32,000 nucleotides of DNA, from contig NC_011979.1 of assembly GCF_000022265.1 (NCBI RefSeq), positions 90,001 through 122,000 on the forward strand, given 5' to 3'. This document shows positions 15,221 through 19,843 of this stretch, piece by piece. This stretch comes from Geotalea daltonii FRC-32 (GTDB taxonomy: Bacteria; Desulfobacterota; Desulfuromonadia; Geobacterales; Geobacteraceae). The notes under the pieces are model-generated. The model made no database searches, was not told the origin of the DNA, and saw only the letters and a list, made by a program, of their open reading frames with translations. Each line of letters begins with the position of its first letter. Position 1 is the first letter of the stretch. Position numbers and translations under genes: made by a program.

Positions 15221-15313
15221 GGTTTCTTCCTCAAAATCCCGTTTTAACAACCTTTTTTATCATTGAATCCTGATCTGAGGTTACCTGACTTCGTTGCCAA
15301 TTTACAATTATTT

Positions 15314-15361
15314 TTTGGCCTGTCGGAAAATCAGGCAAGAAATGAGCAGGATCGATCTATC
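15314..15361. promoter_or_regulatory. conserved 48-nt box, copy A (candidate AraC/YqhC-like operator)
   Basis: Ungapped alignment with 19571-19618 gives 40/48 identical, counted by eye. Core is GCCTnTCGGAnnnATCAGGCAAGAAAnGAGCAGGATnnnTCTATC. Both copies lie exactly 110 nt from the ATG of the divergent AraC-type gene or remnant. Confidence 0.5.
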
Positions 15362-15363
15362 CG

Positions 15364-15392
15364 TCTGTGTTCTTTCTGGAGTAGGTTATAAT
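15364..15392 (+). promoter_or_regulatory. candidate activator-dependent promoter of AKR-ADH operon
   Basis: Perfect -10 TATAAT at 15387-15392 with a poor -35 (TCTGTG) directly abutting the conserved box. This layout is typical of class II activation. Confidence 0.4.
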
Positions 15393-15421
15393 CATCAAAG
15401 GCCTGAACAGGAGGAGAGACA

Positions 15422-16432
15422 ATGCAAAAGCGTGCATTAGGGAAAAATGGTCTGGAAGTATCAGCTCTGGGGTTCGGCTGCAAGGGGATGAGCTTTTCCT
15501 ATGGCCCCCCCAAGGACAAAAACGAGATGATTGCGCTGCTGCGTACTGCCGTGGAACGCGGCATAACATTTTTCGATACGGCGGAGGTCTACGGGCCGTT
15601 CACCAACGAGGAGCTGGTTGGTGAAGCGCTTGCTCCTCTGCGTGACCGGGTGGTGATCGCCACCAAGTTCGGTTTCAACATCAACTCAGGCAATGACCCG
15701 CGCGGGATGACCGGCAATATGCCGGCCCTGAACAGTCGGCCGGAGCACATCAGGGAGGTGGCCGAGGCGTCGCTGAAGCGCCTAAAAACCGACGTCATCG
15801 ACCTGTTCTATCAGCACCGGGTAGATCCGGACGTGCCCATCGAAGAGGTGGCGGGGGCGGTAAAGGAACTTATCCAGGAAGGGAAGGTCAAGCACTTCGG
15901 TCTGTCCGAGGCGGGGATACAGACAATCCGCCGCGCCCATGCCGTGCAAAAGATTACGGCGGTCCAGAACGAGTACTCGCTCTGGTTCAGGCGGCCTGAA
16001 GAAGGATTGCTGCAGACATTGGAAGAGCTGGGAATCGGCCTTGTCCCTTACAGCCCGCTGGGCAAGGGATTCCTCACTGGCAAGATCGACGAAACTACGG
16101 CATTCGACAGTACCGACTTTCGCACCACGCTTCCCCGTTTTACGCCGGAAGCCCGCAAAGCGAATCAAGCCCTGGTCGATCTGCTTGGCAGAATAGCAGC
16201 ACAGAAGAAGGGGACTCCGGCACAGATCGCCCTTGCCTGGCTGCTCGCCCAGAAGCCGTGGATCGTGCCGATCCCCGGCACGACGAAGCTGAACCGTCTG
16301 GATGAGAACATAGGTGCGGTGAGCATAGAACTCACAGCCGGCGATCTCAGTGAGATCGATAACGCCGCCGCCAAGATTACGGTGCAAGGAAACCGGTATC
16401 CGGAAAAGCTGGAGCAGTTGACCGGGCTCTGA
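15422..16432 (+). CDS. aldo/keto reductase (Tas/YajO-like, NADPH-dependent)
   Basis: [33 protein letters not shown] and IPGTTK..RLDEN motifs of the AKR superfamily. Strong SD AGGAGGAG. Confidence 0.9.
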
Positions 16433-16452
16433 CAATATTCCCCTCGCCCCCG

Positions 16453-16489
16453 CCCCTCTCCCCACGGTGGCCGAAGGCTGGGTGAGGGG
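16453..16489. other. GC-rich imperfect hairpin in AKR-ADH intergenic spacer (REP-like)
   Basis: CCCCTCTCCCCA ... TGGGTGAGGGG arms (about 10 bp, one mismatch) with no U-tract. Its reverse translation gives the low-complexity GERGGGEG peptide seen in the spurious ORF 16377-16592. Confidence 0.3.
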
Positions 16490-16549
16490 TAAGGCAGTAA
16501 TGGTAATTCAACACCCGCAGCAAAAACCAAACAAAGGAGATTACTACCC

Positions 16550-17710: not shown

Positions 17711-17798
17711 TATCCCTTTAACGGTATATGAGCTTAAAAATATATATTGCAAATATCCCTTTAAGGGGATATTTTCTGATTATGTCTTTAAAGGGATA
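17711..17798 (+). promoter_or_regulatory. three HipB-type operators overlapping the hipBA promoter
   Basis: TATCC-N8-GTATA (17711-17728), perfect TATCC-N8-GGATA (17754-17771) and TATGT-N8-GGATA (17781-17798). Candidate -35 TTAACG (17718-17723) and -10 TATATA (17741-17746) have 17-nt spacing. Confidence 0.6.
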
Positions 17799-17812
17799 AA
17801 GTGGGGTGAGAG

Positions 17813-18055
17813 ATGAGCGGAATTCGTTCTCCAAAAGAACTAGGGGAGGCACTTCGCCAGAAACGTAAGGCAAAGGGGTTGACACAGACGGCTGCAGGGA
17901 AGCCGGTTAACCTGGTGCAATCCAAAATATCGCAGATCGAAAACGGAACCCTTGCCATCGAGTTGAGTACCCTATTCCGACTTCTGGCGGCACTTGACCT
18001 GGAGCTGGTGGTACAGCCACGACAAAAGCATGAAATTAAAGGAGATGAGTGGTAA
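17813..18055 (+). CDS. hipB: HipB antitoxin (XRE-family HTH)
   Basis: 80 aa with HTH GLTQTAAGKPVNLVQSKISQIENG. Its stop overlaps the hipA start (TAATG). Confidence 0.85.
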   Translation: MSGIRSPKELGEALRQKRKAKGLTQTAAGKPVNLVQSKISQIENGTLAIELSTLFRLLAALDLELVVQPRQKHEIKGDEW

Positions 18056-19365
18056 TGCCCAGGAATCTAGCGGTTTACCTTAATGGGACCAGGGTAGGAA
18101 CTTTGACTCATGCTGCCAGAGTGCTTCAGTTCGTTTATGCTACCTCCTGGATTACCTCCAGCGTGAGCCGTCCCCTCTCACTTTCAATGCCCCTTCGGAG
18201 GGAGCCCTATTCAGGGGACGTCGTCGAGAATTACTTCGATAACTTGCTTCCTGACAATCAGGCGATCAGGAATCGTATCCAGACAAGATTTGGTTCTCCG
18301 TCAAACCGTGCATTTGATCTTTTGTGGCATACCGGCCGTGATTGCGTCGGTGCAGTTCAATTGATACCAGACGGTGCTGAGGCTGTAGATGTTAGAAGGG
18401 TAGAAGCTACTCCTGTATCGGACGTAAAGATAGCGGCCATCCTTAACAATTATCGGACAATGCCGTTGGGTATGCGACCGGATATTGACTTCCGAATCTC
18501 GCTGGCAGGCGCGCAGGAGAAGACGGCTTTGCTCCGGCTTGATGGCAGGTGGTGCATCCCCTCGGGGGTGACTCCAACAAGTCACATCCTGAAGCTTCCG
18601 ATCGGAACGATTGCCCATAGTGGTATGGACCTCACTGATAGTGTCGAGAATGAATGGCTTTGTCACCTCATTCTGAAGGAATTTGGTGTTCCGGTCGCCA
18701 ATGCGGAAATGGAAGTCTTTGAAGGGGTGAAGGCTCTTGTGGTAGAGCGATTCGACCGACGCTGGGCTGAGGATGGCTCGTGGTTGATTCGACTTCCACA
18801 AGAGGACATGTGCCAGGCGATGGGAGTGGCGCCCGCATTGAAATATGAGAGTGATGGAGGCCCCGGCATCCAGAAGATCATGACTTTTTTGCTCGGATCG
18901 GCAGACGCGCTGGGTGACCGGCGGGTATTTATGCAGGTGCAGGTACTTTTCTGGCTTCTGGCTGCAATCGATGGCCATGCCAAGAACTTCAGCATCTTTA
19001 TACGCCCGCGTGGCGAGTTTTCCCTAACCCCGATGTATGATGTGCTTTCCGCATATCCTCTTGTAGTAAAGGGACAACTAGATCCACACAGGTTGAGAAT
19101 GGCGATGGCTGTCAGTGGCAAAAACCGTCGATATGAGCACATCTCCATCCGCTACAGGCATTGGCTGGCAACGGCTCAGAGAAATAACGTATCGCCTGAG
19201 GAAATGGCGCTGATAATTGAGGAGCTCCTTGATCGGGTGGACAGCATAACCGCAGCTGTGGCTTCCAGATTGCCCCATAATTTCCCTGGAGATGTCGCTG
19301 AAAGCATCTTTGAAGGGATGCGGCAGTCTCGAGATAGGTTGGCGTCGCAGAAACACGAACGCTGA
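18055..19365 (+). CDS. hipA: HipA serine/threonine kinase toxin
   Basis: N-terminal LAVYLNG..VG, nucleotide-binding SLAGAQEKTAL and catalytic DGHAKNFS motifs. ATG 18055 is preferred over GTG 18049. Confidence 0.9.
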   Translation: MPRNLAVYLNGTRVGTLTHAARVLQFVYATSWITSSVSRPLSLSMPLRREPYSGDVVENYFDNLLPDNQAIRNRIQTRFGSPSNRAFDLLWHTGRDCVGAVQLIPDGAEAVDVRRVEATPVSDVKIAAILNNYRTMPLGMRPDIDFRISLAGAQEKTALLRLDGRWCIPSGVTPTSHILKLPIGTIAHSGMDLTDSVENEWLCHLILKEFGVPVANAEMEVFEGVKALVVERFDRRWAEDGSWLIRLPQEDMCQAMGVAPALKYESDGGPGIQKIMTFLLGSADALGDRRVFMQVQVLFWLLAAIDGHAKNFSIFIRPRGEFSLTPMYDVLSAYPLVVKGQLDPHRLRMAMAVSGKNRRYEHISIRYRHWLATAQRNNVSPEEMALIIEELLDRVDSITAAVASRLPHNFPGDVAESIFEGMRQSRDRLASQKHER

Positions 19366-19393
19366 ATGATGGTTGAACGATAGGCACCTGAGA

Positions 19394-19477
19394 TCCGGGG
19401 ACAGCAGGTACCTGCTGCTCGCCTTGTTCGGTCCATCAGGCAATGGGTTTTCCCAAAGCTTCTATTGCATCTTCCAT
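19394..19477 (-). pseudogene. 5' stub of a second YqhC-like AraC regulator with in-frame TGA (codon 14), truncated
   Basis: Minus strand reads MEDAIEALGKPIA*WTEQGEQQVPAVPG. The intact paralog at 15220 reads MERALEALATSIARLTEEGEQHITAIHG. The DNA is colinear without indels, and CGA in the intact copy is TGA here (19436-19438). Homology fades about 30 nt before the hipA stop. Confidence 0.6.
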
Positions 19478-19570
19478 TTCCTTATCCCCTGATCCCTGCT
19501 CACAAAAAGGTTTATCCGCGTTTACGTCATTAAACACTGCCTGACCTCATCGTGTGTCCACAACTAAAAA

Positions 19571-19618
19571 TTTTGCCTATCGGACTATCAGGCAAGAAAA
19601 GAGCAGGATTAGTCTATC
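19571..19618. promoter_or_regulatory. conserved 48-nt box, copy B, upstream of AOR operon
   Basis: See copy A. 40/48 identical with the same 110-nt offset from the (pseudo)regulator ATG. Confidence 0.5.
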
Positions 19619-19843
19619 GCCTTTGTAATTTCAGCGGTACGATACACTTACTGTAAAGGACGCTCGAAAGTTTCAGGGGCTTCACCTCCTGTCTGAGCGG
19701 GGCCAGTGAAAGAGGGGTCATCTGTGGAACCGGAGCCTGGAGCATCGGGGACATCAAAGGTACTCCGGCGATGACACAGGCGTATGAGATGGGAAAAAAG
19801 GCATAGCAGAGCGGTCTCACAAAGATCAGTCAGGGAGGCTGAC

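Follow-up and report, generated by a model that had tools for sequence, protein, structure and literature searches.

The genome of Geotalea daltonii FRC-32 contains, within the 32,000-nt stretch of contig NC_011979.1 analyzed here (positions 90,001 to 122,000, forward strand; hereafter the window), two copies of a 48-nt box, each upstream of genes of aldehyde metabolism. Box A precedes genes for an aldo-keto reductase (AKR) and a zinc-dependent alcohol dehydrogenase (Zn-ADH), and box B precedes genes for a 4Fe-4S protein (Fer4) and a large subunit of the aldehyde:ferredoxin oxidoreductase (AOR) family (Table 1). Judging from comparison with related genomes, the boxes appear to be operator/promoter modules of a YqhC-like activator of the AraC family that is widespread in Geobacteraceae, and we consider it likely that AraC1, the intact regulator encoded beside box A, acts at both of them, placing two aldehyde reductases and an exported AOR probably under one control. 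The reading is carried by the conservation of the box, its genomic associations and the decay of genes around copy B, all of which are direct observations.

Box A and box B are identical at 40 of 48 positions without gaps, as had been counted in the initial annotation, which was made from the letters of the window. The best 48-nt match to region A in 200 shuffles of the intergenic region of copy B had 24.2 identical positions on average (standard deviation 1.1, maximum 28), so the similarity of the two boxes is beyond chance. Each box adjoins a divergent AraC-family gene, as annotated, intact at copy A and reduced to an N-terminal stub at copy B, and one offset of 4257 nt separates both the pair of boxes and the pair formed by the regulator 5' end and the stub. 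The distance from box to start codon, also noticed initially, is indeed equal in the two copies, but it amounts to 94 nt (93 nt between) and not to 110 nt; a value of 110 nt results only when one counts from the regulator ATG as far as the position where the invariant core ATCAGGCAA begins (15330 and 19587). The spacers themselves (15221-15313 and 19478-19570, 93 nt each) are unalignable, with 1-5 matches per 10 nt (~30% identity ungapped), while the coding stub has 6-9 matches per 10 nt and the box 6-10. Downstream of box A, the perfect TATAAT hexamer and the poor -35 that had been recognized by sequence reading were found again. A scan for consensus sigma-70 promoters detected no promoter and no canonical -35/-10 pair in the two spacers, as a consequence of the poor -35; this blank result fits an activator-dependent promoter and gives no positive evidence of one.

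A scan of relatives, with one genome per species, yielded 80 loci that encode relatives of the regulator (73-85% identity; numbered L001 onward). At about 75 of these 80 orthologous loci the box keeps a constant distance to the regulator ATG, next to a spacer of variable sequence. The family consensus is GAyrATyAGGCAAkAAwtnrrCAGGATyGgTCTAyC, followed ~25 nt further on by GTAcGgTAtAATCATCA. A 40-nt position weight matrix derived from 72 distinct sites (50.7 bits; training sites range from 39 to 65 bits) has exactly two matches of at least 8 bits in the window, namely A (51.3 bits, 15324-15363) and B (50.1 bits, 19581-19620). At the 19 positions that hold at least 1.5 bits, A, B and the consensus are identical throughout (19/19), and all six differences between A and B inside the 40-nt model sit at low-information positions. 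Applied to 1.12 Mb of related loci, the matrix finds 95 matches of at least 15 bits (93 of at least 30 bits, almost all above 35 bits), of which 82 are at the fixed distance from a regulator ATG and 13 are elsewhere. An unbiased scan of metagenome contigs with the core pattern AGGCAANAANNNNNCAGGATNNNTCTA gave at least 81 sites, 73 with enough flanking sequence to assess; among the matches listed, 58 of the 73 assessable sites have a divergent regulator with AGGCAA 113-116 nt from its ATG (113 nt in the window), and 15 are orphans.

Such a distribution bears on the possibility that the box is a generic dispersed repeat, the end of a mobile element or the leftover of a recent segmental duplication, devoid of regulatory meaning, which we regard as exceedingly improbable. 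Elements of the repetitive extragenic palindromic or miniature inverted-repeat transposable type occur in many copies in unrelated intergenic regions; here only two copies are present in 32 kb even with 3 mismatches allowed, and 82 of 95 matches in the related loci are linked to the regulator. The dispersed repeat that the initial annotation had itself named as a threat to its operator reading is thereby contradicted, and the operator reading gains a footprint at a fixed position, conserved across species and almost confined to the neighborhood of such regulators. The box is thus supported, on comparative grounds, as a conserved operator/promoter module of the Geobacteraceae YqhC-like regulator. 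Comparison alone gives a sharp operator motif (~50 bits) for a large uncharacterized branch of the YqhC family. The operator core was also seen beside more distant regulator homologs (45-52% identity; L101, L102, L107, L110, L119, L165), where the downstream genes match no gene family seen in Geobacteraceae.

AraC1 has the domains of a YqhC-type protein, AraC_N (PF06719, residues 25-176, E = 1.5e-55) and a C-terminal double AraC helix-turn-helix (HTH_18, E = 1.4e-19). It is 98% identical to a protein of Geotalea toluenoxydans and, by BLASTP, 37% identical over 262 aa to YqhC of Escherichia coli (E = 2e-51). Its NCBIfam matches are far below every equivalog cutoff, and the similarity to YqhC supports homology but does not establish orthology. 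The AraC_N domain has no solved structure, matches in the PDB being confined to the helix-turn-helix part. Among 71 homologs with an extractable helix-turn-helix region, including those that adjoin Fer4-AOR and flavin mononucleotide (FMN) reductase genes, the predicted recognition helices (SxSTFHHHFR and ESPSQFSREY) show essentially no variation.

Open reading frames downstream of 89 boxes were chained and clustered to define the content of the regulon. The AKR is the commonest family (55 of 89 operons), followed by Zn-ADH (27/89), the iron-dependent alcohol dehydrogenase (Fe-ADH) of the YqhD family (15/89), NADPH-dependent FMN reductase (11/89), a cupin/carboxymuconolactone-decarboxylase-like (CMD) protein (10/89), MFS transporter (7/89), AOR (7/89), Fer4 (6/89) and flavodoxin (6/89). 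This gene content appears to be that of a carbonyl/electrophile detoxification regulon. Both gene families behind box A are represented in it; the Zn-ADH of the window scores 294 bits with the NCBIfam model of Ahr, below its cutoff.

The Fer4-AOR pair behind box B extends the putative regulon to a second kind of enzyme. Fer4 matches the TIGR01409 model of the twin-arginine translocation (Tat) signal (26.9 bits versus a cutoff of 16.7) and contains the twin-arginine motif LTRRDFIKG (19844-19960), so the AOR enzyme is probably exported, whereas the AKR and Zn-ADH of the same putative regulon are cytoplasmic. The enzyme had been annotated as a tungsten AOR; membership in the AOR family stands (AFOR_N and AFOR_C), but no sign of tungsten is found in the sequence, and no tungstate transporter gene is present in the 32-kb window. 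That AKR, Zn-ADH and AOR form one regulon, as the initial annotation proposed, draws support from at least a dozen other genomes in which Fer4-AOR is located behind such a box. At L005, L024, L027, L058, L072, L088 and L144 it forms a single operon together with AKR and/or ADH, and this operon diverges from the regulator; at L159 it is itself directly divergent from an intact regulator; at L169 the Fer4 start is preceded by an orphan box at a distance of 78 nt; and at L168 there are two boxes, the second of which precedes AKR-cupin-Fer4-AOR. In Geotalea sp. SG265 (L087), an orphan box of 49.8 bits precedes cupin/CMD-FMN reductase-Fer4-AOR and is adjoined by a frameshifted regulator stub (residues 11-53). 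A search of the literature found no paper that links AOR genes to AraC/YqhC-type regulators or describes this operator.

Table 1. Coordinates of the two box loci and their neighboring genes in the window.
Feature	Coordinates	Strand	Evidence or remarks
Intact regulator AraC1, 298 aa, YqhC-like	14324..15220	-	Pfam AraC_N + HTH_18
Spacer from ATG to box A, 93 nt	15221..15313		Holds family-conserved TTACAA (15302-15307)
Box A operator	15314..15361	+	Core ATCAGGCAA-N8-CAGGAT-N3-TCTA at 15330-15359
TATAAT, likely -10 of AKR-ADH promoter	15387..15392	+	Conserved family block GTAcGgTAtAATCATCA
Aldo-keto reductase (AKR)	15422..16432	+	Pfam Aldo_ket_red 1.2e-80
Zn-dependent alcohol dehydrogenase/aldehyde reductase, Ahr/YahK-like	16550..17611	+	Pfam ADH_N + ADH_zinc_N
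Three TATCCCTTTAAGGGGATA-type palindromes (TATCC-N8-GGATA type), HipB-operator-like	17709..17799		Repeat search; upstream of hipB
hipB	17813..18055	+	Pfam HTH_31/HTH_3; NCBIfam couple_hipB, HipB
hipA	18049/18055..19365	+	Pfam Couple_hipA, HipA_C
Regulator2 (AraC2) stub, 28 codons	19395..19477	-	TGA at codon 14 (19436-19438)
Box B, orphan operator	19571..19618	+	Same invariant core, 19587-19616
TACACT, likely -10 of Fer4-AOR promoter (predicted)	19643..19648	+	Aligns with family TATAAT/TACAAT
FMN-reductase pseudogene remnant, last ~50 codons	19648..19806	+	In-frame TAA 19654-19656, native stop 19804-19806
Tat-signal 4Fe-4S protein, small subunit, WorS-like (Fer4)	19844..20569	+	Pfam Fer4 families
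AOR-family large subunit	20566..22368	+	AFOR_N 1.9e-71, AFOR_C 4.3e-112

Copy B is not the simple duplicate that the initial annotation took it to be. The stub of the second regulator (AraC2, translation MEDAIEALGKPIA*WTEQGEQQVPAVPG) is identical to the 5' end of araC1 (15138-15220, minus strand) at 63 of 83 nt (76%), and its homology to the regulator stops ~30 nt from the hipA stop codon. Orthologs from other genera are 77-82% identical to it. Since the stub is no closer to AraC1 than to other genera, copy B is evidently the remnant of an old paralogous locus. These values also bear on a recent segmental duplication: such an event would leave uniformly high identity along the whole segment, its non-functional parts included, whereas here the box is 83% identical, the stub 76% and the spacer unalignable, and B as a recent copy of A was rejected on these grounds. 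The differences between A and B, moreover, avoid every high-information position. One relative does show that such duplications occur: at L034, a segment of ~300 nt that takes in the 5' end of the regulator gene as well as the box has been duplicated at 96% identity (6395-6735 and 7780-8120) around an inserted MerR-like cassette, with a breakpoint just before the -10 so that only the distal copy keeps TATAAT. Modules of stub plus box therefore arise repeatedly. The stub was also considered as a member of an FMN-reductase-linked subtype of the regulator (L025) on the basis of a few shared residues, but the nucleotide identities (77-82% to many loci) do not discriminate.

Rather than a functional leader, the stretch of 225 nt that separates box B from Fer4 holds the remnant of an FMN-reductase pseudogene. 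Positions 19648-19806 can be translated in one frame as LL*RTLESFRGFTSCLSGASERGVICGTGAWSIGDIKGTPAMTQAYEMGKKA* and are ~75% identical to intact genes at L025, L017, L027 and L087 by blastn and tblastx; the intact L025 homolog matches Pfam FMN_red (2.1e-21). The junction between remnant and promoter module is at ~19647-19650, right at the -10 of box B. A riboswitch for molybdenum or tungsten cofactor in this AOR leader was considered and rejected, given the remnant and the results from Rfam (no match at the gathering threshold in the window, and none at E values up to 10 in 19480-19900). Taken with the stub, the remnant indicates that the ancestral locus evidently had the form regulator2, box, FMN reductase, Fer4, AOR. 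In place of the lost body of the regulator2 gene, between the two operons, is a toxin-antitoxin pair composed of the HipB antitoxin gene and the HipA kinase gene with palindromic operators upstream; these palindromes belong to the intervening hipBA cassette and are outside the regulon. Near the same gene cluster, hipBA was also observed at L088 and L034.

Two metagenome relatives (L081 and L084, 97-99% identical) have the layout of the window. The locus of G. toluenoxydans (L086), with 90-94% nucleotide identity and the same flanking genes, lacks the counterparts of window positions 15473-16511 (AKR) and 17722-19728, through two clean deletions at L086 positions 6662 and 7879-7886. The first HipB operator survives there as its first half and the FMN-reductase remnant as its last 75 nt, which marks the locus as derived by deletion from an ancestor organized like the window. 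With the second deletion hipBA, the stub and box B were evidently lost, and ADH came to be joined to Fer4-AOR behind box A; loss of box B in this species thus appears to have coincided with the placement of AOR under box A. The L086 draft assembly has frameshifts in the regulator and in AOR. At L088 (7753-8000), a deletion has placed the 3' end of an FMN-reductase gene directly after codon 6 of Zn-ADH (ATGTACAGAGCAAAAGCA), in a different frame and just upstream of Fer4-AOR; this truncation was considered as one shared with the window and rejected, being an independent deletion at ADH codon 6. The 3' end of the FMN-reductase gene has been retained in three separate lineages. The locus offers a clear case of regulatory rewiring by gene decay, in which a regulator paralog was lost and its operator kept, and in the sister species a further deletion then merged both operons.

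From these observations we infer binding, the direction of regulation, the inducing signal and the transcription starts, as well as the assignment of box B to AraC1 and not to another paralog. With a good -10 ~25 nt past the core and no usable -35, the promoters would be activator-dependent, the activator site abutting the -35. Copy A would drive the AKR-ADH operon, divergent from AraC1. At copy B, regulator2 has been cut to 28 codons beside hipBA and the FMN-reductase gene deprived of its 5' two-thirds, the operator and the -10 staying intact. AraC1, whose predicted recognition helices are the same as those of its relatives, would most likely bind the core of both boxes and recruit RNA polymerase to promoters without a -35, and AKR-ADH and the Tat-exported Fer4-AOR would be induced together under reactive aldehyde or electrophile stress. 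The spacer between araC1 and box A probably contains the promoter of the regulator itself. In the complementary strand the AGGCAA block becomes TTGCCT, and the family consensus has GATAAT 17 nt beyond it; these could serve as the -35 and -10 of the regulator, so that the operator would probably overlap this promoter and autoregulation would be likely. An alternative regulator promoter, TTGTAA-18-TAGTAT, is equally possible.

Several points weigh against control of both operons by AraC1. The literature searched contains no binding, transcript or induction data on this organism, and none on activation by aldehydes in Geobacteraceae. At copy B, TACACT is weaker than TATAAT, and the deletion of the FMN-reductase 5' end may have damaged the promoter at which it stops. 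Between the window and L084 (97% identical) there are no changes in the box where ~0.9 would be expected; given so small an expectation and a possibly recent loss of regulator2, the intactness of box B is no proof of continued selection. Another paralog, encoded outside the 32-kb window, could be the real partner of box B. In the comparison with E. coli set out below, conservation does not extend to the right half of the operator (CAGGAT-N3-TCTA), the gap between site and -10 is 5 bp longer in the window, and direct action of aldehydes on E. coli YqhC is not established (PMC5297802).

Some of these points feed the main rival explanation, that box B is a non-functional relic of the recent loss of regulator2 and that Fer4-AOR is transcribed from another promoter, for example in the FMN-reductase remnant or by read-through from hipBA, without being coregulated with AKR and Zn-ADH. 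With 76% identity to AraC1, the stub has diverged far less than the unalignable spacer, which means that regulator2 probably stayed functional for the greater part of the divergence and lost its gene body fairly late; there is too little divergence between the window and L084 to reveal selection on the box; the FMN-reductase deletion reaches the -10; and hipBA is on the same strand, with no terminator-like site found between it and box B. We nevertheless judge a relic unlikely, because box B at 50.1 bits is within the 39-65 bit range of the family and matches it at all 19 high-information positions, because a hexamer that resembles a -10 (TACACT) persists where the family has one, because orphan boxes occur independently directly upstream of Fer4-AOR operons at L087, L168 and L169, and because the loss of box B in G. 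toluenoxydans came together with the fusion of AOR to the box-A operon.

Box B might also be functional and served by a regulator paralog encoded elsewhere, perhaps in response to another signal, in which case the two operons would not strictly be one regulon. Several genomes and metagenome-assembled genomes encode two such regulators at separate loci (L002/L024, L006/L071, L023/L062), and the view of the present genome covers 32 kb, which is the main caveat. This arrangement seems to us doubtful: all paralogs have the operator core and the predicted recognition helices in common, so cross-binding by AraC1 would be expected even then, and many relatives actually have AKR/ADH joined with Fer4-AOR in a single operon.

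Two Fic-domain genes are also present in the window (6190-7740 and 26808-27941), and Fic genes were observed beside box loci at L017, L026, L081 and L086.

The parallel with yqhC-yqhD-dkgA of E. coli that was drawn initially is supported. AraC1 and YqhC share the same architecture (AraC_N PF06719 and an AraC helix-turn-helix) in addition to their sequence identity, and both are encoded divergently from genes for NAD(P)H-dependent aldehyde reductases, here AKR and Zn-ADH; the AKR of the window belongs to the DkgA family, and the YqhD family (Fe-ADH) provides the first gene of 10 related operons. Aldehydes such as glyoxal, furfural and glycolaldehyde lead YqhC to activate yqhD-dkgA (PMC5297802, PMC6115493). 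In both systems a putative operator in the shared spacer abuts a weak -35. Its left half is conserved in E. coli as AGGCAAGA-N6-CAG, the yqhC-yqhD spacer containing AATAGGCAAGACATTGGCAGAAAT. The Geobacteraceae matrix, built without E. coli, has a single outlier match in 6.5 kb around yqhC, in the yqhC-yqhD spacer on the yqhD strand (L089, 3233-3272), which scores 2.2 bits with the full matrix versus -20.4 for the next match and 12.3 versus -5.4 with the left half; it ends on the mapped -35 (TTGAGA). The -35, the -10 and a "SoxS-like box" of yqhD are those of Lee et al. 2010, in the form in which PMC6115493 quotes them. The segment AGGCAAGACATTGGCAG at positions 3242-3258 of L089 (NC_000913.3, genome positions 3155241-3155257) is a match for the left half of the operator in Geobacteraceae and adjoins the mapped -35. 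It may pinpoint the contact of YqhC in E. coli, where the exact YqhC site in the yqhD promoter remains poorly defined and half of the present motif is shared with that promoter. The corresponding predicted recognition helices of E. coli YqhC are SVSAFHHNFK and ESASQFSREF. The 24-bp palindrome of the yqhC start was not seen in the window. A 2026 preprint on a "glyoxal regulator" was considered and set aside, as it concerns an unrelated LysR-type factor.

The system described here is best compared to a YqhC-type aldehyde regulon with a probably broader reach. E. coli YqhC is reported to be a single-target factor (PMC8249747), whereas the window has two operators in 4.3 kb and its relatives have both orphan and multiple operators. 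In contrast to the E. coli regulon, the products encoded behind the boxes include FMN reductases, flavodoxins and cupins, and also an AOR-family oxidoreductase whose Fe-S subunit has a Tat signal. Tentatively, and with a little less than even confidence, we suggest that the YqhC family of Geobacteraceae may comprise multi-target electrophile-stress regulators with a ~31-bp operator that is partly conserved from E. coli to Geobacter, and that operators which outlast the adjacent regulator paralog as orphans may wire a Tat-exported, periplasm-facing tungsten/molybdenum AOR into the same response as the cytoplasmic reductases. The regulator and its box could serve as parts of an aldehyde biosensor, as YqhC does in E. 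coli (PMC6115493).

In its layout the box resembles the class II-like sites of other AraC-family activators, such as I1-I2 of AraC, XylS at Pm, RhaS and MelR, in which the activator site likewise abuts the -35; in the window a poor -35 is paired with a good -10. If TATAAT is the -10 of the AKR-ADH promoter, the conserved site of ~31 bp would span about -69 to -38. Unlike those sites, AGGCAA, CAGGAT and TCTA do not form two obvious direct repeats at a spacing of 21 bp.

The Fer4-AOR pair itself has a known counterpart in the Tat-dependent "Class V" tungsten/molybdenum oxidoreductases (WORs) such as YdhV/YdhY of E. coli, which likewise combine an AOR-family large subunit with a Tat-signal 4Fe-4S small subunit (PMC13328260); the genes of the window show the feature by which this class is recognized, a Tat-signal Fe-S subunit encoded beside an AOR-family subunit (PMC13328260). 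They differ from YdhV/YdhY in that no third or membrane subunit is evident beside them, and the large subunit matches the YdhV model weakly (223 bits versus a cutoff of 868). Tat-type ("Class V") WORs are without an assigned physiological role (PMC13328260). If the proposed regulon is real, periplasmic aldehyde detoxification would be the first such role for a Tat-type WOR, and the recurrent placement of these enzymes behind the operator of a YqhC-like regulator is a useful and testable clue to it.

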